A stretch of 61,763 nt of DNA, counting the filler, from Sluysia triapertura (taxonomy: Eukaryota): the NCBI GenBank assembly GCA_046118255.1. It is 5 parts of 5 records of this genome, joined end to end, with 100 filler letters (N's around TTAATTAATTAA, not from the genome) between each part and the next. Parts side by side here need not be neighbours in the genome. Positions count along the whole stretch, not along the records: positions 1 to 13,506 come from JBJNIA010036149.1; 4 more parts are not named here. One strand, given 5' to 3'. Shown here one piece after another: positions 1,820 through 55,445 of the stretch (position 1 is the first letter of the stretch; the number at the start of each line of letters is the position of its first letter). Position numbers and translations under genes: made by a program. The notes below the pieces were generated by a model. That model did not search any database and was not told the origin of the DNA. It saw only the letters and a list, made by a program, of their open reading frames with translations.

Positions 1820-2760
1820 TTCTAACAATTACGATTTTAAATAAGGGTTCGTCTGCGGTATACGGTTTATTACGAAAATAACTACGAAAGGAATTTCCTT
1901 ACTCTTGCTAATGAAAGTCACTTAATAACGATTTGTAGAATTTCTTTAATTTTCTAAATTAAACAAATGATCTGTCCGCTTATCAAAATTTTAATTACTG
2001 TAATCTTACTAACAATTTTAATTCTAACTTCAAATAGGTCTATGATCGTAATCTTACCAACAATTTTAAATCTAAATATTCTTTAAGTCAATTTATGCTC
2101 AATTACGTTTATTAATATATTCGTGTAATTCAAAAATTATGAAACTCAAACAAATTTATCTTATTAAATAAACAATAATAATAACTAAGAAATGAATCGT
2201 AGGAAATTTATTCAAATAATAATTAACGAACAAAAGGTCAATAAAATTTATCAACGAACAATGGAACAATTATAATAATAATAGGTTAACAAAGAAAAAT
2301 AATCTTTTCTAATTGTAAATAAATAATTTTGGTTTATAGTTTAACCCAAGTTTAATACTTGGGTGTAAAAATTTAAATGATTTTGCGTAAGATTTTAAGG
2401 CTAAATGTATTAAAGCCGAACTTAACAAGAATTATCTTACTGAATTCTGATAAAATATTCTCCAAAAATTGATGCAATTAATATTGTCCAATTTTCTCAA
2501 AGTCGTCCAATTTTCCAAATCGATTCAACCAATGTTATCTATTTCTGAATTACTTCTAAAAGATCTAAGTCCAAGTAAATTCGTCTGACGAATAAAATGA
2601 TGAATATCTCGTTGACCAAATTTCAAAAAATCCGAATATCACGACGATAACACCTTCTTTTTAAAAAGTTTATAAAAATTCCTTCAATAACCTATGTGTT
2701 TCGTTTGCCAAACCTTCTAATATTTATACTTATTGATGATGGACCATAACATTTTTAATA
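1820..2760. repeat. Non-coding structured repeat family 1, copy A
   Basis: Shares ordered motifs with 3700-4450, 34600-35700 (inverted) and 41000-41830: AACAATTA..GGGTTCG, hairpin ACCCAAGT/ACTTGGGT at 2344-2364, GATTTTAA, and a minus-strand TATAAA near 2725. Confidence 0.7.
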
Positions 2761-3699: not shown

Positions 3700-4450
3700 G
3701 ATTGTAACAATTATGATATTATCAATTTTCTGGGTCCGCCTGTGATATATGATCGATATCTCGCAGAAGACGTATTCACAGGATTTCAAATGTCAAGTTA
3801 ACTACGTGCAAAGTTTCTTAACCGTTTTGATGCAACTTAATCTAAAATACTTTGTAAATTAAATAATCGTTTAACGCAATTCTATGCAATTTAAAAATTT
3901 TAATCTTATATGACTGAGGTTAATTCTTTTATCTTTCAAAAATTCTTAACTAAAGATATAAAACTATAAAATGTATACAAATATTTATATATATAAATAA
4001 ATTGAGGATTCCTCAAACAAAAATTTCAGATTTTGAATTAGATTTTAACTCAGGTGAATTCTTGAGTATAATAAAAATGATTTTGAGTCGATTTTGATGC
4101 AAAAAACATTAATGTAAAACCTTAAAGAAAAATAGCATACTTATTCATGGGATTATGGAATGAAAATAGATTGAAATTACCCGATAGAATTATTTCTGCG
4201 AAAAGCCAAATACTGATCTAATACTCTTGTAGCAAACTGACGATTCGTCGAAAAAACTATTTCTTGGAATAATACGAATAATATCTTGACAAAAATTTGA
4301 ATATTAAAATTTCCTTTAAATAACTTGTAACGAATAATCATCCGGCATATATAAATGTCAAAAAGTTGTAAGTTTTAACTTTTGTTTCTGATTTATATAT
4401 GTACTCTGATTTACTTTACCGACTATTAATAAAATTGTTTATATTCTAAT
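3700..4450. repeat. Non-coding structured repeat family 1, copy B (~1.9 kb after copy A)
   Basis: AACAATTAT..GGGTCCG, hairpin 3739-3782, hairpin 4048-4067, minus-strand TATATAAA near 4395, and a TTTACCGACT motif shared with 41785. Confidence 0.7.
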
Positions 4451-4779: not shown

Positions 4780-5620
4780 GATGTTTATAGTATAACGTTT
4801 CTTCCTTTTGTTGGAATAAGAAATCGAATACTGAAATTGAAACCTGTGTATATGGAACCTGGTATTGGATTGATTTGATTAATTTAATATGATTGATTTT
4901 TACTGTTTATATTTATTTTATAATTAATACATTTTCTATTTTAATTGTAAATATTATTACTATATAAAAATAAATTATTAAAATAAATTTATCTAAATAA
5001 AATTCTTAAAACAAAAATTACTTAAATGAAAAATAAAAAATTGTTTTAAAATTTGTTTAAATAAACCAAACTACCAAATAATCAATATGGCGAACACAAT
5101 ACAAGTATAAATACTAAATAGTTAACAAAGTTTTTTAGAAAATTAATTTTTAGAAAAGAAAAAACAAAGTTTTAGAAAAGAAAGGCACTGGTATCGACGT
5201 ACTAGTTGAAATAATCTGGTCGCTATAATAAAAGACAATTGTTATCATCCATGAAAAAGTAATTTTTATTTTATAGGTTGGAAATGTCCTAATTGTAATT
5301 AATAGTACTGAAACCTTATTCAAAATCATTAATTTATTGTCAGACCGTAAAAAGGCTGACTTAAACTTGAATTAAACTCCAAATTATAATCTTAAAGATG
5401 TAAAATTTTATTATTATTATATTATTGCTGTAACTGTAAAATTTATTTTAGTATTTTGTAAGGTTGATTTCTTATTGTGAATAAATCTTCCGGTGATAGA
5501 GTTGATCTGTTTTATTTAAAATCCTCGCCAATTTAATCAGACCGTAAAAATGCTGTCTTAACATATAAAATCTAATTAATCATTGGCAGATCGTAAGAAG
5601 GCTGTCTTAACGTACTGTTG
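4780..5620 (+). repeat. Non-coding repeat family 2 (triple bulged-A hairpin), copy 1
   Basis: Colinear with 37720-38930: TTTAGAAAAGAAA, ATCCATGAA.AAGTAATTTTT, and three AGAYCGTA hairpins with conserved spacing. Confidence 0.7.
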
Positions 5621-7684
5621 TGCTTTTGTTTTGTTTACTGATATTCCTCTTTAATAACTAAAAATAAAAAAAACTGAATCTCGATATATTCTTATATAAG
5701 AATTACACAAATCAAATCTTTTATACGACAAATATAATTCTATAAATCAAACTTTTTATATGGCTAATCAAATTCTTTAATAAATTATTGTCTAACTCTT
5801 TTTAAAAATCGCAGGGGTTACACAAAATAAAATGAAATATAAATAATAAAGACAAAATAAATCTTAACTCTATACTAACCACGTAAACTTATTTTGTTTT
5901 AATGTTATTGCTGAAGAAAAGATTCAATGAATGTTATCCACAACTCAATTGAATCCAGCGTCCCTATAGCAAGAAGTTCTTGACTAATTTGTCAATTGTT
6001 ACTGTTGTCGTTTTTTCTGGATTGTTCTTGTGATTTTATGTAAAAAGTTAGTTCTTTATATAATATCGAGATAATATCGATGCTATTTTCTTAGAGTCGG
6101 TTTTATGCCGACCCATTACTAAATGGAATTTCATTATTAATTTCCAATGAATGTCCGACTTTAGATTGCCTGACAATTATCTGAGATAATTAGTATTGTG
6201 AAGAACAAGCCCATATCTCTTTAAAATAATCAAATGATAATTTAATATCACAATTGGAATTATACAAACAGATATTAAAATACTTCATCCTAATTTACCC
6301 ATATTTATAATCCAATATAAAATTTCTTTTAATAACAATACTTTATATCATACGTAACACGGTTTAATTTTCAAAGAATGTTGCGATTAGAGAAAGTTGG
6401 ATTGTGAACCTCTAAAGTGAATAGGTAGTAAAAACGGAGTTAACAACACAATAATAATAACAATAATGTAAGAAATGATCCAGTATCAGTTCCATGCTGT
6501 GGTAACATTTTTTTAAATTGATTTTCTTTAAAATAATTAATTTAATTTAAATTATTTTACATATTTTTGGAAATACCAATTTTTTAATTAAAATGTTTAT
6601 TTATTTAATAATTTTTATATAGTTTTTAGGGAAGCTTTTATTTATTCCAAAAATTTTAAAATTACCTTTAGAAACTTTATCTCTATTAACTATTATTTGT
6701 TTAATTTTTTGAATTACTGGTAGTCGTTAATTATTTTGGTTAGTTTCAAATATTTGACTAGTATTGAAAATAACTTGTAATTTTGAAAAGTGATCAAGGC
6801 TCTTTATTTTAATTGTCTCATTGTAATCTTGTTATCTTTTCATTTTATTAAGTTTTAAATTTAATGTTAAATTGAAATAGGTTTGACATCAACATGAAAT
6901 CATTAAAGAAGTAATAAATTGATATAGTATCATTGTTAAAATAAAAACTAATTATGATAATTTGCATTCATTTTGTGCTTATTAAATTTATTGAGATTTC
7001 CAAGCTAAATTGATTTTGTTATTAAATTATTATTAATTCAATTAAATACTCAAAACTATGTTAATTACATTATTTGTTTTCGAAGCTTCCGTCTTTTCCG
7101 TTATGACTTCATTTCTTTTCTGATTTTGATATTTTCATACAAAGTTTGTGACAGCACCTTTCTTTCAGACTAATGTTTTTCAATCAGATAATATAATTTC
7201 TCTAATGCATCCGTTTTATTTCCTGACTTATAATTGATAACTTATTTCGTATAACCCAAATTGTTTTGGATTTCCCACAGAGTATTATCGGTTTTCATAA
7301 AGATTCTTTAACTTTAGAAACTCCATGCAAGATCGTCGTTCTATCTGAAGTTTCAGGTGCTCGTCGGCATTATCGACATTTTAAAGTAAAAAAATTTATT
7401 CTAAGATTGGGAAAGTTTAACCTTATAAATATACTTTATTTAAACGAATTTATAATTTTCAAAAATAAACGGAATAACTTTTCATTCATAATTCAAATAT
7501 TCTATTCAATCACTTAAAATATAAAAGCCATAGTCAAGAATCATGCATCATAATTTATACATATCAATATCTCTTCATATTAATTAAACCACAAAATTAT
7601 AAATTAATTTCGTCATAATTTTGCAATTTAATTCTTTAACATCATATTTACCTTACAGTTGCAAAACTTAAAATTACAAACAGC

Positions 7685-7738: not shown

Positions 7739-7754
7739 CAATATTATTATAAGC

Positions 7755-8450
7755 ATGCCGAAAATATTTCAAAAACAAATTGCACCTACTACTTCAGTAA
7801 ATAATAGTAAAATGGTTATAGTAGCAAACACCAGTCATGGAACAAAATTTAAATCAAATGAAATACCTGGATTAAATGTTTTACGCTTAAATAATCATTT
7901 TAGTACTCCTGCTGGAATTGATCAAGCAAATATACACAAAAGAATTGCTTGTATTCATAGACCAATTGATGCTACTTTTTTAATAACAGGATTCTTAACA
8001 TTTGGATTAAAGACTTGGCAAGTTATAATTTGTACTAATGCTCCAAATAAAGTTGGAGGGTTTCTAGGTGGAATTGTATTATTAATATCTGGTTTAATTA
8101 ATTTTATCACAGTTGGTGCATTATCCTTAATGATTGTTTTGATCAGACTCTTTGCTTATGTTTCCATTCTTTTTGTGATGCTTTTACAAATAATATTAGA
8201 ATCAATTCATATAAGAAATATTCAATACAATTTATATGTTCAATATAAATCTAATTTAGATGAATGCAAAAATTATGCTTTGTTTTATATGAGTGTAACT
8301 ATTTTAATTGCTTGTCTATTCGCATTTCTTATGGCTATGGCCGGACTAATGCTAACGGTAGATGAATTAATTCTTACTTTAAAATATGATAACTACGTAG
8401 AATCTAGTCAAATTAATTTAGGTCGTGGTTTAGAACATCCGTTAATATAA
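7755..8450 (+). CDS. Intronless four-transmembrane protein, MS4A/CD20-like topology
   Basis: Open 231-aa ORF in very AT-rich DNA with four hydrophobic segments. GFLGGIVLLISGLI resembles the MS4A TM2 pattern. AATAAA lies ~40 nt after the stop. Family assignment is tentative. Confidence 0.7.
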   Translation: MPKIFQKQIAPTTSVNNSKMVIVANTSHGTKFKSNEIPGLNVLRLNNHFSTPAGIDQANIHKRIACIHRPIDATFLITGFLTFGLKTWQVIICTNAPNKVGGFLGGIVLLISGLINFITVGALSLMIVLIRLFAYVSILFVMLLQIILESIHIRNIQYNLYVQYKSNLDECKNYALFYMSVTILIACLFAFLMAMAGLMLTVDELILTLKYDNYVESSQINLGRGLEHPLI

Positions 8451-8727: not shown

Positions 8728-9056
8728 ATGCCTCCAAAGCGGAAAATCGCATCAAAATGTAAAGAAGTTGTCCCTCTTAAGAAGCCAAAGAGTGAATTTG
8801 AAAAAGTAAAAGCAGGTATATGAACTCTTTAATATCAATTATACGTTTAGTTTTGCAAAAGGGACCATCTTTTCGTAAAAAGGAACATATCATAGATAAA
8901 GAGGCTCAATCAATTTTTTCTGGTGGTTCTGTTGTTGAGGATTATGATTGTATGCTTAATCAAACAAATATTGACAAAAATAACAATAAATATTATGTGA
9001 TACAATTGATTAAACATGGTGGTAAATTTCATGTGTGGACTAGGTGGGGAAGAGTA
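8728..9056 (+). CDS. PARP3/PARP2-like poly(ADP-ribose) polymerase, 5' exons (WGR domain), partial
   Basis: Exon 1 8728-8815 (MPPKRK...), a 35-nt GT-AG intron 8816-8850, and exon 2 from 8851 in frame encoding YDCMLNQTNIDKNNNKYYVIQL...VWTRWGRV, the WGR signature. Probable donor at 9057. Later exons were not found. Confidence 0.85.
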
Positions 9057-10899: not shown

Positions 10900-11250
10900 A
10901 ACACAATTTTTATTTATGCTTATCTATATTTCTTGGTTTTTATGGTAAAATAATGAAAGTAGTTAGTATAGTCACCACTATATGACCGAAGTGGTGAGCA
11001 CCTCTATGGGATTTTAAACTTTTAATATATCTTTCTAATTTTTATAAATTGTCGGCGAGTTAAAGTAGTAATGGAAGGATTATGAAATTTGCTTAATGTT
11101 AACTTTAATTAACATTAACTTTAACGACCACTTTAACTATAATGCATTGCCATGAACTTTACGTTTAGCTTTATTGGCATATTTATTTTAGGTAACAAAC
11201 ATTTCAATTGATAAATTCAATTAATTGCTGCTTGAATTTATATTTATAAA
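10900..11250 (-). repeat. Non-coding repeat family 3, partial inverted copy
   Basis: CCACTA..GTGGTGA..GGATTTTAA.TTTTAAT..TCGGC(G)AG matches the reverse complement of about 14500-14640; hairpin at 10972-10997. Confidence 0.5.
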
Positions 11251-11612
11251 TATTTCAATTTATTATTGCAAGATTTTGTTCGAGTTACTTATTACATTAC
11301 TTTATTCTGTGTTGCGAAGGTGTTAAAAGTTTATGCAATATTAAATTGAATGATGTGACAGTTTGATTTTTTAAATATTTCTTTAATAATTAACTTTTAA
11401 TTAAATTTTCTACATCAGTGCCTTCTTTGTTTTTTATATTTCGATTTTTAAATGATATTACGTCATTTATTATGATAATTATACTGATAAATAATTATAA
11501 TTATTATTGCTATTATTATATTATTTTATTATTACTCATTGTTATATTATATTATATATTATTATTAATCATTTATTTTGATAATTAAACTGATAAATAA
11601 TTATTATTGTTA

Positions 11613-11679
11613 TTGTTAGACTTCTCAAAATGGACTGACCGGGAATCGAACCCGGGACCTCTGTCTGAGCAGTTAGATG
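11613..11679 (-). mobile_element. 3' part of a tRNA-derived element (SINE-like or tRNA pseudogene)
   Basis: Minus strand reads CATCTAACTGCTCAGACAGAGGTCCCGGGTTCGATTCCCGGTCAGTCCATTTT: T-arm/B-box, 3' acceptor strand and T4 terminator. The tail AGTCTAACA is shared with the copy at 44094. Confidence 0.8.
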
Positions 11680-12142
11680 ATTAAAAACATGTATTAATAT
11701 AATAGTTTTAGTCTCTTTCTCTTTTTTTAGAGAAGGAAGGTAATCTTTCTTCTATTCAGGGACCTTGTAGAACATGGTCGCGATATGCGTTATTCGAGGA
11801 CTCCGCAGCTAGTCGTACCAGGGTCTTGGTTTCGGTCTTGTGGAAGCCAAGTGCCTTGAGAAGCTTGTCATTCTCGGGATCCCACGAGCTCAAGGCTCCA
11901 ACGACGAATGTATCCAGAGACACCTTGCACATCAGTTGTTCCTGCAGTTTGCCCTGGAGATCAGAATACTTCGCTATATTGGTGGTTCGGGCTATTTCGA
12001 AATTTTTCTTCAGGTTCATGGGAGTTTTGACATCAATCAAGAACAGTTGCGATGAGGAAGTACCGCGGGACTGTATGTCAGCTCGTCGAGTCTCACCGAT
12101 AATTGGTGTAGGCGAATCCTTGATGACTTACAATCCCTTCTG
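11680..12142 (-). mobile_element. 5'-truncated R2-group (NeSL/R4/Utopia-like) non-LTR retrotransposon: REL endonuclease end plus 3' UTR
   Basis: GC-rich island encoding RRADI...LIDVKTP...AR...KYSDL...FVVGALSSWDPENDKLLKALG, the restriction-like endonuclease C-terminal pattern. Confidence 0.85.
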
Positions 12143-12163: not shown

Positions 12164-13085
12164 ATTTTAGATTATTATATTCAATTTAGCACTTTAGGGC
12201 TGTATCCCATTACATCAGCTTTCTCCAATTTATTTTATAGTAAGAGTAATTACAAAATCAAAATAGTTATAAATAGTATAATAATTGGAGTTATAAATAG
12301 TCATAAATAGTTATAAGAATTATAATAGTTATAACTCCTAAAATAGTATAGTAATATTAATAGTAGTAAAATAAATATTTTATAAATTTTATAAATGTAA
12401 TTTTTTTGTTTGAATCATTACAATTATAAATTTTTATTCAAGAGACAACAAAAAATTTAGTTTTGCTTATTAAAATGATACATAAAGAAGTGAGTTTGAA
12501 ATATATCACCAATAAATATATAACGGTGATAAGCGGAAAAAATATCTTGGATAATAAATAAAATTCATAGCATTTACAAAACTTGTGTTATGGTTGTTAC
12601 TGAAATATTTTCCTATTTCATACAAAATGTTTTCTTATTTCACTATGGATTCGCCTATAGTTTACGGTTTACCTTTTGACGAGAAACGTACCTCTAGGAT
12701 GGGTGGGTCTGATAAATGTATCCTTTCTTCTGTCACTTGTTGGTATCCGCATAATTACATTCTTAAATTATTTGTGCAATAAGCAATAGTGTCAATGATT
12801 TTTGGATTTAGAGGAAAGTGGATATTAATAATACAAAGTCCTAAAAGCATTAATAAAATAAAAATTAAATGTTTAAATGAAATATGGATTGTAGGATATT
12901 GTTGGGATTGTCCAATTGTGCATCAGGAGATAAGTGAGAAACATATAGAGCTATTAAATCAAGGAAGAACTGAAACAAAGAGATGAATTAAACATTATAA
13001 ACATTGTTGAAATAAGAATCATAAAAAAGAAAATATTTATAATAATGTTAACAGTTAAAGAATAACTTAAGTTCCAATGACCTAT

Positions 13086-13300
13086 ATAAGGTTCGAGACA
13101 TTGTAGAAGCTTGAGATGGATTTGAAGAACTTTTGGAAGCATTAAGATATCTTTGAACTTTAGAACCTTTGGATCATTGAAGACCTTAGTGACCTTTGAG
13201 TATTCTTGGAATATCGATAAGCATTTGAGATCCTTTAGTAACCTTATAAAGTGTATGAAATCTTTAAATTGCTTGAGAAATAAAATCTTTGTTCAAAATA
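13086..13300 (+). repeat. Unclassified dispersed repeat (inverted copy at 49982-50200)
   Basis: TATAAAGTGTATGAAATCTTTAAA..TTGAGAAATAAAATC.TTGTTCAA and upstream sequence match the reverse complement of 49982-50180. Confidence 0.75.
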
Positions 13301-13506
13301 ATAAAGATGAGTTTAACATAGTAATAATTAACATGAAGAAGTAGAAACATGAATCAGAGAGGTGAAGGTGAAAACATCTAGAGCCTCCTGAATGCCTTAT
13401 AAACTACTAAAAAAACTTTAGAACCTCACTTAAACCTTTAAACATAGAATAAGATTAAGTCTAAAAATAGATTAATTAATTAAAAATCTTAATTAACTTA
13501 ATTAAG

Positions 13507-14299: not shown

Positions 14300-15125
14300 T
14301 AAGTTTATTCTATCGATTTCTATTGGCTGATGACTAGTATATAAACTAGCTTCAGCTCAGTATTTTAAACAATTTTATTTACGATTAGTACACACAATTT
14401 TACAAATTAGTATACATGAAATTTTAACAACGTGGTCTTTGTTCGCAAATTATTTGGTTCCAAACTACAGTTTAATCTGCAATTAAATATTTGCAAATTT
14501 TAATTCATTGTACCAATTTCGAGCGAGGATTCCCAACAATATTTACTGCCGAAGGATGGAGGAAATATAATATTTTTCTTTATTCGAATTAAAACTTAAA
14601 ATCCACGTAAATTCACCACCCTGATCTAGTGGGGGGAACTTGTAAATTCTAAAATTTTAAAGTTAAATTGAAGACCCTCAAAGGTTTCGGTTTTAAAATC
14701 AATTATTTTAGCACTATTTCTGTATATCTATATTTGTTATTTAATATAAAATTTTTGTAATAGACTTTACATTTTGTTATTCTATTTGGATAGTTCGATT
14801 TAATAGACCCTCCAATTAGTTATTGTATTAAGTTTTTGAGATATTAGATTACACTATAAGCTACAGAGGTGCCAACTATTAGTTGTAAGACACTTACTGT
14901 AGCCTGACCCTACTCAATTTTATTTTGCCGTAGGTTTAATTCATAAGAAAACCACAGCAGATTTATCAGTAAGACATTAATGGAAAGTTTAGTAAATTTA
15001 AAACGATTAAGTTTTAATAATACGCTCAGGAAATTAGTTTGGTCTTTATAAAATTAATAATGTTTCAGTTTCTTTCAGAAGCCTTTTTAGCTTTTTTATA
15101 AATGCTTAACCTTTTTATACTCTGA
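14300..15125. repeat. Non-coding repeat family 3, copy 1 (LTR-like; TATA inside a hairpin)
   Basis: Colinear with 39150-40100: CTGATGACTAGTATATAAACTAGC and a near-identical block TAAGCTACAGAGGTGCCAACTATTAGTTGTAA...CTCAATTTTATTTTGCC.TAGGTTTA. Confidence 0.75.
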
Positions 15126-29006: not shown

Positions 29007-29684
29007 CGGTCCAAAAACTAACCGAACCGCAAACGTAAATAAAAATTAGATGTCACTTTATGTTATCTTCGTTCTATTCATTTCCTTCTGAGAATAGTAG
29101 TCTTTGGAATGACTTTTGTTGCGTGACTGATCTTGTTCATTTTGTTCTGACGTCATTGCTTTATTTTTGTTCAGCGTGCGGTTTTGGACCCTCATTCTTA
29201 AAAATGCAGCAAATGACTTTAGATTTAAATAAATGTATCTTCGTTATTAAGAATTACTATGCAAGGACTAGCTACAAGCATGGTGTAGAAAGATGCTCAA
29301 ATGCTCCTAAAGAAGGTCGTTCGAAAACAGAAATAAAGTGACAGCTGCATTTGTTCATTATCCTAAAAATCTATCCTCCAAACATCGAAAGAGCTTAACA
29401 TTTCTCGAACCATATCTTACATAACATTGGTCTAAAACCTCATCTTCTTCATACCCTAAATGAGGATGACCCGGATAAACGATTAGAATTTTGTACAATT
29501 TTTTGAAGAATCAAATTTTCAGATTTCAGAGCAAACTTGCCAGAAAGTATGTCGCAGTGTTGTCAAAAAATGTATTTGTATTGAAGTTCACAAGGTTGAC
29601 ATTGTGAACATATACTTATTAAATTTGTTGTTTTTGATATCTAATTGTTATTTAAGTTTGTGGTTCGGTTACATTTGGTGGCCA
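29007..29684 (+). mobile_element. Internally deleted Tc1/mariner-superfamily element
   Basis: TIRs TAACCGAACCGCAAACGTAAATAAAAATTAGAT and ATCTAATTGTTATTTAAGTTTGTGGTTCGGTTA; transposase relics CIFVIKNYY and LNEDDPDKRLEFC. Same family as 45578-45988. Confidence 0.8.
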
Positions 29685-33350: not shown

Positions 33351-34319
33351 TTTTCACATACTAGAAATTAACTCTAGTGAGAAAAATCTTTTTAAATCGA
33401 TCCCATATAACGGGATTTACGTAAAATCATTATTTTAAACTTTTGCATTTGACATTTAACTAAAAATATTTAAGTTTTTAAATATTAAACTCCAGATTTA
33501 AGGTGCTAGATAGAATCATTACTTTATCAGTTAAGTATTTATTTTCGCATAAAAATCCAACGGCTGGCCCTCGCTGGTAAGTCCAATACGTTGGTGAACT
33601 CACGTAAATTTTAATTAACTCTTTATTCTATACATTAAATTCTCAGAAAAAATAAAATAGTCAAGTGAGTCCGAATACTTAAAATGGAGCAATCATACAA
33701 CATTATAAAGATTGTGTAGTTATTTGAGTCAAGTCAAGTAAAGTACTTATAATTAGACTTATAATTATACTTATACACTTAAATATTTACGTTACAAACA
33801 GCTTTAAAATGAAAAATAGAAATTTGAATTAATTTTATTGACCTTAAATGTCTTTTCAAAATTTGCAAATTAAAGGTTAAGTATTATTTTAAATCTGAGT
33901 TAAGCTCAGATACAAACTTATTAAAATAAACTAACGTCTAATTTTTAGATAATCTGTGTCTGAAATTGTTAATCATTTCGATAAAATTGTGATATGATTG
34001 TACAGCTGTAAATTTGAGAAACCAGTTGTGTAGAAATCTTATTAATCAAAATTCAAATTGGGAAATAAATTTTTAAATTCAGTAAAATTGAATAAATAAA
34101 TTGTTTAAAATGATTAAATTAAGTTTTCAATGTGCATTGTAACGCCATTTATTTTGCTTAATGCATGAGTACATGTTTACTATCTTAATGAATACAAAGT
34201 ACTTTTTATCAATCAGTAACGACAAACGTACTAAATAAATTCTAGCTACAAACCCTTATTAAAATTATTATTATTGTTGTTATTATACGATTTAAAATTA
34301 TTAATTTTATTGTCATTAT

Positions 34320-34599: not shown

Positions 34600-35700
34600 A
34601 ATTATTATTAGTCAACGGAAATTAATTCTAAACGGAAATCAATATTTACTATATTTATTTTAACAAAGGATATTATATTTATTTATTTAAAATTTTAACA
34701 AAGGATATTAGTAATTTATTATACGAATATTATCGAACGGAAATTTTTAAATATTTAATATTATATGAATATTATTTATCGAACGGAAATCAATAGTTAT
34801 TAACGCAAATCAAACTCCAAAAAAGTATAAAAGGTATAATTTAATCATTGTTAATGCACAACAATAATAGAAAAGCTTCTGGAAATAAATTCTGTGGACG
34901 ATTATTCAGTTGTAAAAGGATTGGAATATTCAAATTTTGGTTTACGATTGGAACATTTGGTCTTCTCTGATTATTTCACAATTTTTCGATTAGAATATCC
35001 GATATTCTCTCAATTGCTCGTATCTGAAAAAAGGAACTTTCAAGCAGCTTTTGCCATACATTATTCGGCTTCAATTTACTGATTACGTAAGCTTTTATCA
35101 TTAAGTTTTTGACCCGAATCCACGGTCTTAAAATCCTACTCAAATTTAATCATAAAATTTAGTGAAACCCAAAGATAACCTCTGGGTCAAAATCTTACGT
35201 AAAATTTAAAATTCTATTTTTATTATATTATTTAATAATTTGTCGTGTTATATATAATTTTGTCCATTTATATAATTATACTGTGTACGATACTTTTTAC
35301 TTGATTTAATAAAAATTCTAGTATATATTTGTGACTTGTTTTTCATTTATAAAATTACGACTAAAGATAAATTAATCAAGAATCGAAATTTATTAAAACC
35401 TTTTAATACCTGTAAACAAAAAGTTCAGTAACCTTTGATTATTAAAGAAAAAGTGATTAGAAAATTTGCACCTTAAGGGATAAATTAATTAAAGTGTTAA
35501 GAAAATAAAGACTTAGGAACATATTTATCAAATACAATAACTACTGACATTACGCAGATAAAAGATTTTCCTGATCTTCAGCTTTGACCGTTTTAAATCC
35601 TACGTAAACGTCCTTCCAGATAAGATAAATCGTTTAACGTAGGTGAACCCAACTTACTTCTAAATTCTTTTATAATTGTTCGTTTAGATATAAAATCGAA
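34600..35700. repeat. Non-coding structured repeat family 1, copy C (inverted relative to A, B, D)
   Basis: AACGGAAAT repeats, AGTATAAAAG at ~34824, hairpins 35167-35187 and 35599-35643, GAACCC..ATAATTGTTCG. Confidence 0.7.
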
Positions 35701-35749: not shown

Positions 35750-36340
35750 ATTTTATCATGAACAAACATTTTTACTGATTTATCATATTAAACAAATTTT
35801 AATTAAATTAATTAACAAATGTACTTTAATTTTTAACAAATAAAACCTTGTAAAGGGTTATTTCTTCTTATTACTCATTATTTTGTTTTAATTTAAATAT
35901 TTTATATACTTATCTTACCATTACAGTTCATTATAATACCTCACCTTGGTTCTTTAATAATGTTAAACTTATTCTGTTATCCTAAGTCCTGACCCTTACA
36001 TCTACCTTTATCCTTCACTAATCCCAATAATTTACGTTTCTGATTAAAAAATAATTGACGTTAAGAGATTTTAAAAGAACAGGGTTATGTTGGGCTTGCT
36101 TGAAGATAAAGTCGTGGCATAAAAATCAAATAATCATCATTGAGAAATCAAGATAGAACATTATGATGAATTGTGATAACAATGTAAGTGTATTAAATGT
36201 TTAAATCAATACAAAATATGGGAAGAAAGAACCATTTATAAGGTTTTATTTGTTAAAATATTAAAGTATATTGGTTAATTAATTTAATTAAAAATTATGT
36301 AATTTGATAATTTAGTGGAAAATGCTTACTCATGATAAAT
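35750..36340. repeat. Long imperfect inverted repeat
   Basis: 35750-35965 aligns with the reverse complement of 36130-36340 (e.g. AATTAAATTAATTAAC..TACTTTAAT..TTTAACAAATAAAACCTT versus AAGGTTTTATTTGTTAAA..ATTAAAGTA..GTTAATTAATTTAATT). Confidence 0.9.
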
Positions 36341-36970: not shown

Positions 36971-37630
36971 ATGGCGTTTACACTTCATAATAAGTCAGTA
37001 ATAATTGATTTCATAGATTTTTTTAAGAATAAGGATATAAATAAAACAATAAGTACAAAATCACCTAATACAATGAATAGAGTTATGAATACTACTACTG
37101 AATTAAGTAAAAAAGTAAGTAAGGGCATAAGTAAGGAGAATAAGTGGGAAATACATAACATTTTTATAATTGCACTTTTAATTTTTACTATAATCTATAT
37201 GCTGTTCACTATTTACTACATAATTACATGTAATAGGATAATAAGAGTTAATAATAGGGTACCAAGTATGATGTTTCTTACCTTATTGACATTGATAACA
37301 ATTACAAACGCATCACAGAGAATTTACAAATCGTAATATTTAGATTTTTATAATTTTGATACTGAAGTTCAAATTAAAGTAACTAGAAACATCAAAGCAC
37401 AATACATATGTATTAATCCAGCAGGACTTAATTTTAGTATATGGGAATTACATAGACACGTTCTACCAAACACGGAGTATCCAGTAACAATATGCAGGGA
37501 CTATTTACTTTCAGAAGACAGACATGTAATAATATTCATTCAGCTTCAAGCTAAAATTATTAAGCAACTTCATTTTGCTATACAAGGAATCAAAGGACCA
37601 ATAACGATTATAGACACTTTGATATTTTGA
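36971..37630 (+). pseudogene. Decayed membrane/secreted ORF, possibly the N-terminus of an env-like glycoprotein
   Basis: TM segment, then signal-like MMFLTLLTLITITNA. The frame continues past one stop at 37334-37336 for ~97 codons (AQYICINPAGLNFSIWEL...C...FIQLQ). Confidence 0.45.
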
Positions 37631-37719
37631 CCATCAATCACGGTCTCAAAGAAAATGACTTAAACAACGCTAAGGACATCAACAAAATACGAAAAAGTTC
37701 GATGACTTCTTTGTATAAT

Positions 37720-38930
37720 AAAGTTTTAGTTTCTTTTCACCCAGAACTCATAATCGGAACATTAGGAATTCCATGCGGTTGGTTTATTGTTATATACTAA
37801 CTTACTCGAAACCATTTTAAAATTTAATTAACCTAATTTTTTCTAAAATATTAAAATTATCTAAATAAATAATATTAAAATTACTTAAAACAAACTTTAA
37901 AATGATTATTTAAAACAAGTAATTAAAATATTTCTTTTAATATTTAGTTTTAATTTTATTTTTAATTTAAATTTTAAAATAATAATTTCTTTACTATTAA
38001 AGTTATATTTAGAAATATTTGTTTTTAAAATTATTAATTTTCCTATTTTTATTAATTTATATAATAATATTAATTTAATTCGTGTAATAAAAATAATTAT
38101 TCATAAAATAGTTACAAAATAAATTCTACAATAAATAGAACGTAGAAGTTACAACTTGACGATATTAAAAGCAGAATTTTTAATCAGAATAATAATTAAT
38201 TTAAATTTCTAATTTAGAAAAAAATATTAAAATTATATCGATATTTTATTTTAATATTTAAAATTTTTATTTTCGTTTTAATTCAAGAAATTTTTAAAAT
38301 ATTTTTCTTTTAAGATTAGGAAATTATTAAATTTTAGGAATTTTGTTTGTACGAACCAAAAAAAGTAATATGGGGATATTTTTGTAAAATTAATATAAAT
38401 TTAGGGAATTTTTAGAAAAGAAACAAAATTATTTAGTTTAAGAACATTCTAATAAAAGAAAATGTCAATGCATAAAAATCTTTCTATATCCATGAACAAG
38501 TAATTTTTTGTTTTATAAGATTTTTAATAGTTTTACCGAGTAAGGAAGACTTAAAATCCTACTTAAATTTTATAACTTTTCATCTAGACCGTACTGGGTA
38601 GAGTAATTTAAATTTTAACTTAAAATATCACGTCGAGGGAATTAATCCATTGAACGTGAATTTTAAAATCCATATCTCTATTATAATTAATATTTTTTTA
38701 AATTTTATTCTTCTTTTATTTTAGTCCTTTTTATTTTGTAATAGAGTTGATAAAAAGCGTTACTTTTATTTCTTAAACTATAAAATATTTATTAAAACTA
38801 GACCGTATATGGCTAGTGAAAAATCTTAAAATCCTTTCATCATAATTACTAGACCGTACCAGGTTAGTGCAATATAAAATATTTTACATACCACACATTA
38901 ACAAGGCTAGTGCAGTACATAACAAACCAG
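37720..38930 (+). repeat. Non-coding repeat family 2 (triple bulged-A hairpin), copy 2
   Basis: Colinear with 4780-5620; hairpins at 38583, 38797 and 38848. Confidence 0.7.
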
Positions 38931-40455: not shown

Positions 40456-40647
40456 TTATCTCATTTTTCTGGCTTCACGTTCACATTCTAATAACGTCAA
40501 AATATCTCCAATTCGAACTGGACCACGAACATTACGAACAATGGTTCGGTCAGACCCATCCATAAATTCTGCACGTACTTGAGTACATTGACCTTGATTG
40601 CCTGTACGACCTAATATGCTAATTACTCGAACGTTAGTAGATTCCAT
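40456..40647 (-). CDS. RPS28: 40S ribosomal protein S28 (eS28)
   Basis: ATG at 40647; [14 protein letters not shown]...[27 protein letters not shown] is the eS28 signature; intronless, 63 aa. Confidence 0.97.
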
Positions 40648-40999: not shown

Positions 41000-41830
41000 C
41001 TAAGAAAAGAAGAAAGAGCCTAATATTTATCCAAAGATTTCATACATGTTATATAATAGTGTTAATTCATTAATCTCTAATAGTGTTAACGATAATCATA
41101 ATGCGTCTTTTGTTAGATTATATTTTACATTGAATTTAAAATGGCCAAGAATCCAATTGTATCAATACAAATAAATAATAAATTGAAAGATGCATCATTG
41201 ATTGATTATAACTGTAAGGTTATTTTTATTTTATCCTAACGAACAATTATGATTAACTTACTGGGTTCGCTTATAATCTAAGATTTATATCGCAAACTCA
41301 AATTATGAATTCAAAATAAATAAATACATGTAATAGAATTTCTCCTAAAATATACAATGAATCAAAATTTTTAAGAAGATTTTGACCTAGGCGAATGCTT
41401 GGGTTTCGAAATTCAATTGAGTTTAAGTAAGAATTTAATACAAAATAATATTGTATAAACTTAACATAAAAAGCTTACTAATTTTGATTCTGGGACATCA
41501 CATATAATCAGAAAAATTCGTTGAATTAATTTATATAAATTTGCTTCCAATGATCCAAATCTTCTCGAACAGTAACTTCAATAAGCCTGGTTCCAACAAT
41601 CAATTTATAGATCCCAAACAACCAAAATTTAAAATTATGCTGGAGTCGTAGCTCAAATTATAAAATACTTATTTTTGTGTGAAAACGTAAAATCGTTTCT
41701 TCTTTTATACTCTTTCTAAGGTTGCTGATTGTATATTTTTGCCGGCTTTATTTTTTTATATTTTTTGATAATTAATTATTTAATTTTACCGACTTATTAA
41801 CACAAAATTGTATATTTTTGCCGATTTCTT
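41000..41830. repeat. Non-coding structured repeat family 1, copy D (internally deleted)
   Basis: AACGAACAATTAT..GGGTTCG, AGATTTTG plus hairpin 41385-41404, AAAAGCTTAC, minus-strand AGTATAAAAG near 41705, and TTTT(G/A)CCG repeats. Confidence 0.7.
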
Positions 41831-44093: not shown

Positions 44094-44182
44094 CGGCTGA
44101 TAGCTCTGTGGTAAAGCATCGAAATGCGCAGCGAGAGGTCCTAGGTTCGATCTCCGGTTAGTCCATTTTATTAAGTCTAACA
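44094..44182 (+). mobile_element. tRNA-derived element (SINE-like or tRNA pseudogene), complete head
   Basis: A-box TAGCTCTGTGG, B-box GGTTCGATCTCC, degenerate acceptor stem, broken anticodon stem, TTTT terminator and tail AGTCTAACA. Cys/Ala-like ancestry is tentative. Confidence 0.8.
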
Positions 44183-44236
44183 TTATTAATAAATACATAT
44201 GGTTACTGATATAATAAAGTTAGTACTCAAAATTGC

Positions 44237-45060: not shown

Positions 45061-45577
45061 TATCTGATTAGACTTAAGTTCACTTTTAAGTATTATTATA
45101 ACTATGATTTTTATTATTTTGAAAAGATAAGAATTTGTTTGCCACAAAATTCATTATCTTTGGATAAGTGCTAGATAATATTAAGACGGAAATTAATGTT
45201 CAAATTTGATTAATGAAATTAGTTGGAATAAAATCGATGTACACAATAATTAAGTCGAATTCTCTACTTTCTAGGAATTATCCAAACACTATAAATATAA
45301 CAATATTTTTGTATCATCGCAAAAGAAAATTAATACTTCTGGTGTAAGAAGGCTGATTCAAAAAAAACACTGATTGAATCTTATATTCTTTAGAAATAGA
45401 AACAAATTTTATTTTTAAGCCAACGTATTTGTGGCTTCTTGGGTCTTGAATTTTGAATAGTTTATTTGTTATTCGGTTACTAAGATTTATATATGTTATG
45501 TAACCCCTAATATGGAATACTATAATTGAGTTTTATTTCATTGAATTATACTGTTTTAATTATTTGATTTCTATAGT

Positions 45578-45988
45578 CAGGTGTCCCAAAGTAACCGAAT
45601 CACAGACTTAAATAAAAATTAGATATCAAAAACGACAAAAGTTCAAAATGTAAACCCTGAACTTCAGTACAAGCACATCTTTTGACAACACTGCGACATA
45701 CTTTCTGGCAAATTTCCTCTGAAATTTGGTTCCATTCATGCTGAGTTCTTTATTTTAGTTGATTCATTGTCTTAAGCTTTTCAGCAGAAGCTACGTTCTT
45801 TAGTAATTCTTAATAACGAAGATATGTTCTTTCATTCAGTGCATTTTTAAGAAGCGCGCGCTGAACAAGACTACTCGCAGAAGGAAATGAATATTAGCGA
45901 AGATAACATAAAAAGAAAAAATTACACTTGTCGCTTTCGATATCTAATTTTTATTTAAGTTTGGGGTTCCGTTACTTTTGGGACACTG
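45578..45988 (-). mobile_element. Tc1/mariner-type MITE
   Basis: ~60-bp TIRs (CAG(G)TGTCCCAAAGTAAC...TTAGATATC), TA after the right end; internal sequence is the reverse complement of parts of 29007-29684. Confidence 0.9.
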
Positions 45989-46779
45989 TATATTGAAATT
46001 TAGACTCATTTTATTATTATTATTATGGTTAATTAAAAAGATAAAAACTATTAGAATGGAATGATTACTAAAATAAACGCAGTTTGTTATATTAATTTTG
46101 AAATTTCATTTTTAAAATTTACAAAAGAATGCTTTATAATTGTAATAATTTTTTAATGTAGTTTATATGTTAATGTAAAATTTAGGCTGGATTTTTTCTA
46201 AGTCTTTGAAATCTTGTACGTTATCTTTTCGCTTTAAATTTATGTCAAACTTGAATATGTCTGCATGCTATTTTATACTCTAAAAATTCTTACTCTATAT
46301 TATTAATTCAAATATCTCTATAAAATTTATAATTATTCTGAACTTTAATTAATAATATCACTTTATATTAGTCTTAACCGGAGGTATGAATCAGTATACT
46401 CGTATATTCAGGATGGAAGTGCTTATTAATTTGATAATGATATCTTTAAAATAATTTTATTAGCGGTACCATTCTCACTTTAGTATTTCAATATATATAA
46501 AAAAAAGAATAATAAATTATTAATTTATAGTTATGCAAATATACTTAAATTTACTAAATAGATCCAAAAAAATAAAGCAATAAATAATCACAGTTCGATT
46601 AGTAAATCTGTCAAGTTTAATGATTTCAATTGTTGATGATTCCAAAACGATTTCTTCTTTTATAGATTGTTAATAAATTTTGAAATTCTCAATAAGTTTA
46701 GCCCAACTTAATATACATATTTTATCAACTCTTCTTCTTTTATACTATTTTCATATAATAGTTACCAATAGTTTAAATT

Positions 46780-49981: not shown

Positions 49982-50200
49982 ATCTTGAACAATGATTTTA
50001 TTTCTCAAATATTTTAAAGATTTTATACACTTTATAATATTACTCGAAGATCTTAGATACTTATCAAGGTTTCAAGAATACTTAAAGGTTAATAAGATCT
50101 CAGATGATCTCAATGTTCACAAGCTCAAAAGCATTCTAATGCCTTCGAAATGTTCCACAAGGTCTCAATACCTTATGTAGGTTTTTGAAACTCTAAGGTA
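49982..50200 (-). repeat. Unclassified dispersed repeat (copy of 13086-13300)
   Basis: Reverse-complement similarity over ~200 bp. Confidence 0.75.
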
Positions 50201-50354
50201 TTCTTCAGCTGCTAGCCATATTATAAATGTTTTTACTTTCATGATTCCCACTCCGACAATTCTTATAAAGCTCCATCTATCACTTCGCATCAACTCTTTC
50301 TTCATTTTGTAATTCTCTGTCTTTTACTCATCTCCTAATTCACAGTTGAAAAAT

Positions 50355-50700
50355 CTCAACATGAATAATGCAGTGAAGAGAGAAGCATTTCAGAAGCTAC
50401 ACTTGAAAGAAATAACATCAACAGTGCGTGACGCAAAGAAAGGTTATCATCATATCTTAATACCCATTTGTTCCCGAAATATTTCCAAAATGTACGGAAC
50501 ATATTATAAATGATCTTAATGGTGTCTATAAAAAAGGCAATGCCCATTAAAATATTACTTTAAAAGATTAGTGTTTGCGAAGCGGATATCCGATAAACAT
50601 ATGTTTATTGACCGCTTTCTTTAGATAGCCCTGATCGATTATGTTGCTTCATTATCCAAGTGATATGACATGACGAAAAATGGAAGTAGTACATAAATAA
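50355..50700 (-). mobile_element. hAT (Charlie/SPIN-like) transposase relic
   Basis: LDNEAT (DE.TD equivalent), DIRF, and SLHCIIHVE (CxxH motif). Confidence 0.65.
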
Positions 50701-51792: not shown

Positions 51793-54700
51793 AAATGTTA
51801 CTAACTCAACTTGAAAATGTGCCGTAGAAGTATTTAAACAGGTTACTGAGAAATTAATTCCCATTCTAGGAATAGATGCTGGTATATCATCTAATAAAAA
51901 ATTGATCTTATTGATATATGTATTAAAATAATCTAGTTTTTCACTGACCACATATTGGAAATTCACTGTGGAACGAAATGCACATTTTCCGTAAAATTCC
52001 GTGAAATTGTTTTGTGTATCGCACTGAAAGTATTTTTAAAATTTATTTGGGGATTTAAAATAAAAATATTTGTGCACTATCATTATTTCACACGTCAAAA
52101 ATCTTTACTTTGATCTACGTTCGATCCGTAATATTTTGTAAATGCTAATTAAGTATTATGTATTCCTGCCTTCATTCTTCACGTTTTTCTGGCTTCTGCT
52201 TTGTCATATGGAGTTTTTGGGAAGCTTTTTCGTGCTTATAAAGATGTTTTGAGATAAATATAAGTGGATATTTAGGTACTATAAAGTATGTGCAATATCA
52301 ATATTTACATATTCAAGATTGATTTAGAATATTTATATTTTTTAAATTGTATAAAATAAATTACAGTTAACGAAATGACCCTAAATAGCCTTATATAATA
52401 TCTGTTTTCTATATTTTAATGATAATAAGCTGATTTGTATTATATATTGATACAATAGGAAATAATTTCTTCCTGTTTAATAAATTAGAAATTTATTAGA
52501 AAATAATAATTTGTTTCAAAAATGTTTATTTTCATCTTCCTTTCTGTCAAATGCTCAATTTCATTGGGCTCATCACTTTCTCCGAACATTAATTCATTTT
52601 TCAAATCATGCTCAATCCATACGTCAAATGTATCATTCGCCCAAATAATATTATCTTATGATCCATCCATGTCGTTAGTCAGGCAACATTACTTGATAAT
52701 AGTTGCTTCTCTAACTGCATCCCACAATTCTTGAATCCATTTGCAAATAATTTCTAAGTCAACCTTTTTTCTGTTTATAGAACCACTAAACATCCACGTA
52801 TTCCATCTTTTTTCATATTTCTTGCTTAAGTGGTCTATTGAAAACTACAATAATTTGAAGTTGTCCTGTTATTTGTTTTGTTTCGTCTAATACTAGCATC
52901 CTCCTTTAATTTCGAAATTCATATTTTCTATTCTTAAACCAAATACTCAACTCCTCCTCCATTCCTCCATTCCTCCATTTTTTGTGCTTTAACAACCATA
53001 CTAGCCGACCAGTGAATGTTTTTTGGGCAAGGCAGGAATCTTCGTACAATCATCATAATCACCCAGTATAACTGTAAACCTTTTTTCATTCCTTGCAGTT
53101 TTAATAGGTACTGCCTTAACTCTTATGGAAAACAATGTTTGAAATGAAAGAATATCAAAAATAAATGGATGCAACTAATTAGATATTCATACCTCTTACT
53201 TAAATTTATTACACATTCTACACCATTTATTATTTATTTTCTGCGATATCTGTCATTCTTATAAAAATATTCATTTTCATGAAAAGCTGGCACCAACACA
53301 CCGAGGCTTTAAATATTGAATTAAGGCACAACTCACTGATTAAACCGAAAACCTTCAAACTAATTTCTACACTATATATTGTGCAACCCGAAAGTTGCTT
53401 TGGGTGAATATAAATTCAAATAAAGAAAAATAATTTCCCACCTCTGCTAGGTGCCTTTATATAATGCTCCAAAGTCTTTCATTGGCTTCATTTAGACCAT
53501 ATTCCATATTGCCAATAAGTTAAGCTGTTTCAATCACTTTCAATTTAAAACCAGTCATGTAATTGCAACATTTTAAAGACATTATGTTATAATAAACAAT
53601 TTAAATTTTACCGAAATTAGAATATTTAAACAAAATATATGGGATTTTGATTAAATTCAAACCTTTTTAATAATTAAACATATGTATTATAATTGCTTTA
53701 CTTATATTATTTTACATTTAGTTAATTTTAAAGATGCATACTACATTTGGACATTTATTGTAATTTATTAATTCCGCGAAAACGATTGTTTAATTTATTT
53801 CAACTTTATGAAATATAATTTAAGGTTACTTTATCACAATATTTACCAATTCGACCTTTTTCGTAACAAAATTCTTCACAAGTTCCATCTTGATGACAAC
53901 TAGCAGATAGATTATTCTGAACACATGGACATATTGAACAGCCACTGTAAGTGTGGCCATGGAAACCTTTTATACAACGGTCACAATGCTTTCCCGTAGT
54001 ATTATGCAAGCATCGAGTGCAAACACTTTCTAGTAATAATAACAATAATAGTAATAGTAATAATAATAATACAATGATAATGATAATAATAATAATAACT
54101 TGTGACATTGTTCTTACGTACAATTTGACATGTAGAATGACCATTACATCCACAAAATGAACATTGAGATTCGTTTAAAGCTAATGAAAACAATGGACGA
54201 CAAACAGGAACTTTTTGATTGGTTAAAAGATCGGGGTATTGAGCAACAGAAACACACTGAATTAATATAAGATATTTTAAAATAGTTGACCTTCAAAAAA
54301 CCAATGCTTTTGCAACTCTTATATAATACCAATTTTCACGTCCCGCAATAAGTAAATACAAAAACGATTCAATAATCAATCTTGAAATTATAAGTGAGAC
54401 CCTTAGAACCTGAGCATCACATTTTAATACCTTTCCAAGTAGTTTCAAACGATTTAAACGGCTGCACACAAAGTTTCCAAATATCTCGATTTGATTCAAC
54501 TAGTACGGTAAGAGTATCATTTTACAGTTGTGAAGATCCTCCTGATTTAGGTTTATATCCTGTAAATAATCGTTTTTCGAACTGTTTTAAACCACTTTTC
54601 AATTGTTCTAAGACTTACAGAATCTGATATGTTTTAAAAATTTTATTAAAATCTTCAGTGGATCACTATACTCCGAAAGGTTACAATATCGAATATGAAA

Positions 54701-55445
54701 ATTATCATAAAATAATAAAAATAATAAAAATAAAATAATAAAAATAATAAAAATAAAATAATAAATTTACATACATGTTTTAATAATTATAATGAATATT
54801 TAAACAATATTTTGTTAAATTTGAGCTATTCAAAGTTTATCTGTAAACTTTTTTCAAATCTAATAGAAGCATATTTTGAGTAGTAAAATTTTACTTCATT
54901 TGACATAAAAATCTATCGTTCCTGAATATATGGAGTACTGGATTTGATTAGTGTGATTTCTTCTGTCTAAACCATCTTAGTGCCAAAAGAAATCCACAAC
55001 TTAAATGACGCAATCAGATCACATAAACATGAATTTAGTGGTTTTATCTAATTGCTTTTGTTTAAAATAAAAATATTTTATGCAGCAAAATTGATTAAAA
55101 ACAATTTTCCCATATAAAGTATTTTAAAATAACTGAAAGTATTAATGCACGACCTTAATTGGATTTAAATCTCATCTCACCTTTCCAAATCCATCTAATT
55201 GATATGGCTGTATTTTAGATCTAGAATCAATTTCACACCAACCACATGAATACAATTGATTACAAGAATAACAATACCGCATTGAAGAACAATCTATGGG
55301 GCACTGATAATCATATAAAATCGGTGTTGGATCTCCACGAATAGTTCCAGTAATTAAGCTTTTACCAGTACCACGACATGTTGCGCTAGCACCATTTAGC
55401 AAAACATTTTGTAGACCATTAACACATTTACCATTCACAGAGCAC
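51793..55445 (-). CDS. ATRN: Attractin-like protein, internal exons (PSI, laminin-EGF repeats, juxtamembrane region)
   Basis: Phase-compatible exons 55445-55181, 54256-54118, 54029-53830 and 52023-51793 give C..C.....CGWC...GFGK|CVS...CGCNGHSTCQIVQSVCTRCLHNTTGKHCDRCIKGFHG...FCYEKGRIGKYCDK|CDTQN...GKC....VNFQY...INF, colinear with attractin/ATRNL1. 5' and 3' exons unresolved. Confidence 0.85.
52560..53575 (-). mobile_element. Decayed pogo transposase (in attractin intron)
   Basis: YMTGFKLKVIETA, ASVCWCQLFMK, PFIFDI, VPIKTARNEK, ICKWIQELWDAV and CCLTNDMDGS*D. Confidence 0.85.
54310..54610 (-). mobile_element. mariner transposase relic (in attractin intron)
   Basis: KWF...KPKSG, RLKLLGKVLKC..V (WVPHEL region), LIAGRENW (IVTGDEKW equivalent). 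Confidence 0.65.

Follow-up and report, generated by a model that had tools for sequence, protein, structure and literature searches.

At two places in the 61,763-nt stretch of Sluysia triapertura DNA that we analysed (hereafter the window), the motif AGA(C/T)CGTA stands three times in short hairpins, and the question raised by these two triplets, which we call locus A and locus B, is what such hairpins would do. A first-pass annotation had proposed that they are protein-binding RNA hairpins such as packaging or localisation signals. The analysis below indicates that the likely role of the hairpins is to control when tiny introns beside them are removed, and not to serve as packaging signals.

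The window and its two hairpin triplets

The window is AT-rich, with a GC content of 18-36% per 2-kb step, few long ORFs and scaffold gaps. Its gene content comprises eS28, laminin/attractin EGF exons and a PARP3-like fragment. The best solved relatives of eS28 are animal proteins, and the named relatives of the PARP3-like fragment are mostly from invertebrates. Together with the Gypsy-type remnants noted below, this content marks the window as animal DNA. The eS28 gene (40459-40647, minus strand) is uninterrupted and unusually divergent, with two relatives found, the nearest being 83% and 74% identical. In the attractin-like exons (53800-55450, minus strand), one inferred intron consists almost entirely of AAT microsatellite, and its last 8 letters are those of the B3 acceptor described below. 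Remnants of a Gypsy-type RT, RNase H and protease lie at 16.6-18.8 kb. A tRNA-like short repeat that is not called by ARAGORN, and is probably a SINE, has two copies (11604-11682, minus strand, and 44114-44192, plus strand); the first adjoins an ORF end (11756-12127, minus strand) that has no Pfam match and that, we presume, recalls the restriction-like endonuclease of non-LTR elements. Depth in run X1, a sequencing run of unrecorded kind whose depth is given in 414-nt bins, is greatest over short degenerate units at 12900-13400 and 49982-50361 (bin mean 807,522). We also observed inverted-repeat pairs resembling miniature DNA transposons (45567-45999, 29009-29678, 35769-36321 and 55875-56210) and a second collinear block pair with a strong hairpin (14307-14355/39158-39206 and 14849-14959/39711-39808, spaced by 542 and 553 nt), which is probably the other family of the first-pass annotation. 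Two in-frame ORFs with one stop between them and hydrophobic stretches lie 0.7 kb upstream of locus B (36971-37800, plus strand); they match no protein family above the cut-off.

All six copies of AGA(C/T)CGTA in the window are on the plus strand and form the two triplets. Likewise, AGACCGTA occurs five times and AGATCGTA once, all on the plus strand and all inside the triplets. The units, together with one extra hairpin, are as follows.

5339..5360, plus strand: hairpin A1, with an acceptor-like CAG, a putative 3-nt exon ACC (5344-5346) and a donor-like GTA that opens the loop
5536..5557, plus strand: hairpin A2, with CAG, putative exon ACC (5541-5543), GTA and three mismatches
5585..5606, plus strand: hairpin A3, with CAG, putative exon ATC (5590-5592) and GTAAGA
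38529..38551, plus strand: extra hairpin B0 of unit-like shape, with a putative 9-nt exon (38531-38539) and GTAAGG in the loop
38583..38602, plus strand: hairpin B1, with TAG, putative exon ACC (38588-38590), GTA and a G.G mismatch
38797..38817, plus strand: hairpin B2, with TAG, putative exon ACC (38802-38804) and GTATAT
38847..38869, plus strand: hairpin B3, with TAG, putative exon ACC (38853-38855) and GTACCA; it cross-pairs with B2 in the whole-locus fold

The units are spaced by 197 and 49 nt in locus A and by 214 and 51 nt in locus B, in keeping with the similar spacing noted at first pass. Across 200 locally shuffled windows, the motif occurs on average 1.6 times (maximum 6) and a triplet within 300 nt never arises (0/200). 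The window also holds four strict hairpins, as compared to a mean of 0.2 and a maximum of 2 in 60 shuffles. We conclude that the two triplets are real, structured and non-random. A covariance model built from the six units finds only these training units in the window below an E-value of 1; the best match outside the training set (14665-14692, E 1.8) has a bulged-A shape and a different loop. Further sites with a TAAAATC motif plus a hairpin lie at 14596-14700, 33400-33620, 35585-35660 and 10960-11020. A pattern scan of metagenome contigs (29 of 64 parts) and viral contigs returned 137 loci, which we rejected as chance matches: none has three motifs and none is similar to the window by BLASTN, and the covariance model finds no match in 99 of the 137.

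When the six units are aligned, pairing is kept in 92.1% of 38 cells and both sides change in 3 of 7 pairs, a signal that is abolished by sliding the pairing partner. The observed pairing or covariation score is reached by 2 of 500 shuffles, and the number of double-changed pairs by 107 of 500; independent covariation events are few because the six rows descend from only two loci. Over all units, the 48 pair positions comprise 36 Watson-Crick pairs, 4 G.T, 1 A.C and 7 others. The balance of G.T over A.C leans toward pairing in plus-strand RNA, at a count too small for proof. The hairpins are stable with RNA parameters (-4.5 to -9.2 kcal/mol) and marginal with DNA parameters (-0.4 to -4.3 kcal/mol), which, along with the Watson-Crick majority, supports a conserved RNA pairing on the plus strand.

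The hairpins as they had been drawn at first pass fared unevenly. The six units do fall into two triplets, but the bulged-A shape is the minimum-energy fold in only three of them (5339, 5585 and 38797). The unit drawn at 5538 (A2) is present, but with C.T, T.T and A.C mismatches; B1 (38583) prefers another fold, and the bulge of B3 (38847) slides. The arms differ between the loci as claimed, but the ACTAG/CTAGT stem assigned to locus B fits just one of its three units. The stems are indeed uniform within a locus and different between loci, each locus having its own arm letters in all three units. In the whole-locus folds, A1 forms its own hairpin with a probability of ~1.0, and B2 and B3 cross-pair, at a probability of ~0.99, in preference to forming their own hairpins. 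The mean arm-pair duplex energy is -5.8 kcal/mol for a unit's own arms, -4.9 for crosses within a locus and -2.75 between loci. Selection for interchangeable pairing would account for the uniformity within each locus, as would independent tandem growth of each locus. Since their order and spacing are common to A and B, the triplets probably predate the split between the two loci.

Splice-like signals and intron-sized units

All six units read YAG-A(C/T)C-GTA, which is an acceptor-like word, three nucleotides and a donor-like word. The base at -3 gives CAG throughout locus A and TAG throughout locus B, a C-to-T switch that stays within the acceptor consensus. Given that the invariant letters are YAG, three nucleotides and GTA, splice sites are indicated, a point that the first-pass annotation had missed. 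In every one of the six units, 34-47 nt separate the YAG from the nearest AG upstream, as compared to a gap of at least 35 nt at 23% of the 2264 YAG sites. Among the 28 YAG-NNN-GTA sites in the window, 10 are preceded by at least 30 bases without an AG, and the hairpins account for 6 of these. However, two of four related loci described below (K and L) are AG-poor at the equivalent place, and all four lack AG-NNN-GT, so the argument from AG exclusion is weakened. A looser pattern, in which a hairpin stem contains YAG, GT follows after 1-13 nt and the upstream sequence is free of AG, occurs 45 times, as compared to a mean of 44.8 in 25 shuffles. At this chance level, resemblance to splice sites is weak evidence when taken by itself. 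A window-wide class of hairpin-gated microexons was rejected for the same lack of enrichment, and we therefore do not count loci C, E, I, K, L or B0 as support.

Splice-like words also occur upstream of each triplet and in the linkers between the hairpins.

5251..5258, plus strand: locus A ATG block, made up of ATG and 5 further nt and bounded by a donor-like GTAATT (5259); a putative upstream exon end
38492..38499, plus strand: locus B ATG block, made up of ATG and 5 further nt and bounded by a donor-like GTAATT (38500)
5347..5540, plus strand: linker A1-A2, with four GT..AG units (5347-5397, 5400-5451, 5458-5499 and 5501-5540)
5544..5589, plus strand: A2-A3 unit, a 46-nt GT..AG stretch with no internal AG and a TAAAATC motif 24 nt before the AG
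38591..38801, plus strand: linker B1-B2, with three GT..AG units (47, 69 and 64 nt) in the loosest setting only
5320-5327, 5516-5523, 5565-5572, 38551-38558 and 38826-38833, plus strand: T(T/C)AAAATC-type motif, a candidate branch region 24-37 nt before an AG
8816..8850, plus strand: 35-nt GT-AG intron of the PARP3-like gene, the excision of which joins MPPKRK to the WGR domain

The word CCATGAA.AAGTA is found at three sites in the window, namely at A, at B (85 and 88 nt upstream of A1 and B1, respectively) and at the related locus L; among these three, the ATG block varies only at the third-codon position. Over an alignment of loci A and B, 280 of 546 columns are identical (51%), and 8 local shuffles give 46-51%. 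Identity over ~600 nt is thus at shuffle level, which means that only islands have been kept, most of them on acceptor-like or donor-like words. The intervals between the splice-like signals measure 85, 194 and 46 nt in A and 88, 211 and 48 nt in B. GTAA falls 9 times on the plus strand and 0 times on the minus strand in A, a bias matched, in the top rows of 1168 windows, by microsatellite tracts only; the count in B is 4 to 3, with no bias.

We tiled the linkers into GT..AG units under settings that were picked after looking at the data. The 194-nt A1-A2 linker divides into units of 51, 52, 42 and 40 nt that are separated by 2, 6 and 1 nt and are alike mainly at their ends; under three settings, 4, 47 and 236 of 3000 shuffles tile. 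This parse requires exons of 1 and 2 nt. The 211-nt B1-B2 linker requires exons of up to 21 nt and a GAG acceptor (39 of 3000 shuffles tile) and fails under the two stricter settings. The interval B0-B1 tiles under two of three settings and A0-A1 under none. In a joint test across seven settings, in which the arms were kept and the linkers were shuffled, the real loci tile in 2-3 of 4 intervals, a result equalled by 15-219 of 4000 shuffles. Tiling of the linkers into GT..AG units of 31-69 nt thus exceeds what shuffling usually yields (0.4-5.5% of shuffles reach it). A chain test over the whole window makes A the longest or joint-longest chain in two of five settings, a length reached by 2 of 60 and 10 of 60 shuffles, and unremarkable in the other three.

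The PARP3-like gene, whose 5' part lies at 8728-9056 (plus strand), provides a calibration for intron size. Excision of 8816-8850 restores the frame from MPPKRK to the WGR domain, and 44 of 83 PARP3-like homologues start with MPPK or MAPK, most at a similar distance from that domain. This restored frame implies that 35-nt introns are spliced in this genome. The array units measure 40-52 nt in A, and 46 and 48 nt between the last units of A and B. The 35-nt intron has the same donor hexamer as B2, with TTAATATC, an 8-mer resembling the array motif, placed 22 nt ahead of its AG. In 9 of the 12 array units listed, T(T/C)AAAATC or a shorter form of it stands 15-37 nt before the AG, and we regard it as a candidate branch region.

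A putative micro-exon array and its alternatives

Taken together, these signals suggest that A and B are two paralogous micro-exon arrays in which each hairpin would mask an acceptor while showing a donor, and so would be predicted to order intron removal; we judge this to be the best account of the hairpins, about as likely to be right as wrong. In each unit, YAG forms the last three letters of the left arm, the exon-like bases consist of the bulged A and the CC, and the loop begins with GTA. The right arm falls within the next intron-like unit (+7 to +14) and has both the acceptor and the CC as its pairing partners. Introns of ~40-70 nt would separate the putative 3-nt exons. During RNA synthesis, the hairpin would conceal the acceptor and leave the donor in the loop, such that the downstream intron would be removed first. 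Its loss would delete the right arm and free the acceptor, and the exon, by then fused to the next one, could be joined upstream. According to the available part of PMC8831610, a microexon is too small for its two flanking introns to carry spliceosomes simultaneously, and one of them has to wait; given this constraint, ordered removal would be needed, and the proposed order would keep two spliceosomes from meeting on three bases. Because the arms also fit other acceptors of their own locus, alternative pairings could cause skipping. A fuller version, in which ladders of 1- to 6-nt exons and 40- to 52-nt introns carry one hairpin lock per single-codon exon, each lock pairing the next intron with the acceptor and forcing 3'-to-5' removal while swappable arms give combinatorial skipping, would follow the same logic; we think it unlikely. 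The portion of PMC12871342 available describes vertebrate microexon acceptor regions as unpaired and free of covarying structure, which is the opposite of a masked acceptor.

Locus A has one candidate for a downstream exon.

7754..8450, plus strand: candidate downstream exon for A, with an AAG acceptor followed by a 231-aa four-TM ORF whose phase matches the one predicted from the array

The ATG block plus three 3-nt exons gives a product that ends in phase 2 and fits the acceptor at 7753, a match with a one-in-three chance of arising by accident. The 231-aa ORF (7755-8450, plus strand) is CD20/MS4A-like by atlas features and has no Pfam match; HMMER finds one full-length relative (P0086, 28% identity) and word search none. 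By this homologue, the four-TM ORF is a real gene. P0086 has an N-terminus that equals the unextended ORF in length and bears no resemblance to the predicted array peptide, and array A may therefore be a leader or unrelated to the 231-aa gene. When all small exons are included, a stop falls in the ATG frame at both loci. No clear candidate for a gene downstream of locus B was identified. As to an N-terminal signal peptide, the frames of the array allow several readings, none of them anchored, and the putative exons may either code, with an M-K/N-K-P-P start, or lie in a 5' leader.

An alternative is that the intron-like units are part of a leader RNA or a non-coding RNA, in which they would attract splicing factors or be excised one step at a time, and would yield no meaningful 3-nt exon product. 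The splice-like evidence fits this account equally well, as do the stops in the ATG frame and the want of a clear gene downstream of B. Nevertheless, the three bases are kept as ACC or ATC in all six units, though pairing alone could hold the CC, and the ATG block of A, B and L varies only at its third-codon position; we consider this account quite improbable. More improbable still is a reading of every unit as the gene of a small non-coding RNA of spliced-leader or microRNA type. A donor-like GTA does lie within a stem-loop, as in leader RNAs, and one A-T6-G run, of the A-T(4-6)-G form of an Sm site, follows the first donor of B (38502-38510), but none follows the first donor of A. No Rfam family reaches its gathering score in the window, loci A and B have sub-threshold matches only, and an ARAGORN tRNA scan of the window was empty. 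The stems are presumably too short for a microRNA precursor. Furthermore, spliced-leader exons end in WWG before the donor (PMC3795323, in the part available), whereas the donors here follow ACC, ATC, AAA or CAA. We give this possibility very little credence.

The packaging or localisation reading, in which the hairpins are protein-binding operators of a retroelement transcript, draws on the co-varying stem, on the conserved bulge and loop start, on hairpins that fold better as RNA than as DNA, and on the retroelement remnants elsewhere in the window. MS2- and PP7-type coat-protein operators consist of a lower stem, a bulged A, a 2-bp upper stem and a loop. The units resemble them in shape only, with a 5- to 7-nt loop that starts with GUA and without a cognate protein or element, and just half of the units adopt the bulged-A shape as their minimum fold. 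Such an operator would require no YAG, AG-free linker or intron-sized spacing. The nearest RT, RNase H and protease remnants are >10 kb from A and on the other strand, no direct repeat brackets either locus in a self-BLAST, and gag and env families have no match in the repeat beside A or in ORFs near B. With no LTR, gag or env tied to either locus, this part of the first-pass annotation found no support, and we regard the operator reading as highly improbable.

A mobile element offers the most substantial of the other accounts: the units would be modules, each with a TAAAATC motif and a hairpin, of an old non-autonomous family, such as a rolling-circle element with repeated ends, in which the role of the hairpins lies in transposition and the likeness to splice sites is incidental. 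We consider it rather unlikely but well short of negligible, and were it right, the array would be an ordinary repeat of modest interest. It rests on the following features.

4014..4161, minus strand: related locus L, with an ATG-plus-donor block, a TAAAATC block and a hairpin, without AG-NNN-GT
2317..2462, minus strand: related locus I, with the common scaffold and a homologous hairpin without AG-NNN-GT
35066..35219, plus strand: related locus E, whose ends form a 14-nt inverted repeat and whose opposite strand carries AGACCGT (35128)
41353..41500, minus strand: related locus K, with the common scaffold
~5650..6350, strand not assigned: unclassified very high-depth repeat directly 3' of A3 (bin depths 83,726 and 185,961, as compared to ~11-18 in long single contigs)

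Loci E, I, K and L have in common with A and B a 140-nt scaffold that keeps a donor-like word, the TAAAATC block and the hairpin but not AG-NNN-GT, and three of the hairpins at these loci fold better on the other strand. Six homologous loci within 62 kb, with unrelated flanks and leave-one-out scores of 17-45 bits (7.1 at most in shuffles), in a window full of repeats, favour this account, but in a model built from just E, I, K and L the scores of A and B are weak (9.0 and 6.8 bits), and the link rests largely on L. AGACCGT also occurs in opposite-strand hairpins at 35128 and 37646. The terminal inverted repeat of locus E is matched in 0 of 40 shuffles, but those at A and B are at chance (36 and 7 of 40 shuffles are as long). 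Depth in run X1 is 2,870 and 83,726 in the two bins that hold the A hairpins, as compared to 404 upstream and ~11-18 in long single contigs, none of which, among those listed, covers these bins; at a bin width of 414 nt, the signal of the hairpins merges with that of the adjacent repeat, which is a possible source of the depth. That repeat has no Pfam family of note and, like the ORFs near B, no gag, env or transposase match. An inverted-arm arrangement, with the 5' block as the reverse complement of the TAAAATC block, was plausible by eye and failed the shuffle test, since the two blocks pair no better than shuffles at any of the six loci (30-196 of 300). The hairpins are marginal as DNA, and the GT..AG tiling is left unexplained. 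The six loci fall into two groups of three, as do 2.5% of random placements, a pattern more like local duplication.

The features that we used to test for Helentrons were taken from the available parts of PMC4067079 and PMC7492417. As described there, the non-autonomous HINE/DINE-1 Helentrons are likewise dispersed and non-coding, with a short conserved motif followed by a stem-loop and sometimes with tandem units. The stem-loop near the 3' end has a parallel in the order of motif and hairpin at all six loci, which is not diagnostic; as for the 11-15 bp sub-terminal inverted repeats given in the same sources, A and B do not exceed chance, and the only comparable pair is the 14-nt one at E. Among 150 of the 185 stop-free frames of the window, none encodes a Rep/helicase partner of Helentron type, and the ORF upstream of locus E has no atlas match. 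Two further ideas were dropped: a contig joint (11052-2341) as a link between two loci, where the bin depth is too low beyond a short match, and a coding reading of I and K, which have a P-S-I-x-L-G stretch in common, given no Pfam family of note and a compensatory hairpin change in L.

Comparison with known microexon and splice-site systems

Exon definition cannot fit a 3-nt exon, and vertebrate microexons appear to use an open acceptor region, which leaves the handling of so short an exon by the spliceosome to be explained. If the micro-exon array is true, it would offer a compact and protein-independent answer in the form of a 20-nt hairpin that covers the acceptor, the exon and the donor, recurs three times in each locus and co-varies from one paralogue to the other, and such genes would be invisible to annotation. 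Among the matches listed in open-licence literature, we found no paper on a hairpin spanning an acceptor, a 3-nt exon and a donor.

Schistosome MEG genes, in the text of PMC10526429 available to us, have 10-20 short exons of 6-81 nt (3-81 nt in the abstract), introns of 0.1-5 kb and a signal peptide. The putative arrays resemble them in their runs of very short, mostly frame-keeping exons, in their clustered paralogues and in the mobile elements nearby. They differ in that the putative exons here are 1-21 nt long, the putative introns are 31-69 nt, and a hairpin surrounds each 3-nt exon; if only the 3-nt exons are used, the putative introns measure 46-211 nt, and with either count the arrays do not match the MEG genes in intron length. 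Vertebrate and plant microexons, in the portions of PMC12871342, PMC8831610 and PMC13149111 consulted, provide a likeness in 3-nt exons that lie between GT-AG introns and in flanking introns that are removed singly for steric reasons, and 1-nt exons have been reported in plants. As presented in these portions, however, those are mostly single exons, and the branch-to-acceptor region of vertebrate neural microexons is lengthened, unpaired and without covarying structure; loci A and B, in contrast, have paired acceptors and a candidate branch motif at an ordinary distance.

A G-rich element just 3' of the donor has a counterpart in the GGGGCUG enhancer, which is bound by SF1 downstream of the microexon donor (PMC9929638, as partly available), and two right arms of locus A read GGCUG. 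Unlike that enhancer, the right arm has a different sequence in locus B and changes in step with the acceptor, as would befit a pairing partner more than a protein site. In tau exon 10 and in the docking-selector system of Dscam, RNA pairing hides a splice site, and alternative partners choose among exons. By comparison, a single 20-nt hairpin here would span the acceptor, the exon and the donor together. The array would thus act like a microexon with a splice-site hairpin, set apart from the schistosome MEG genes by its intron length and from leader RNAs by the end of its exons.
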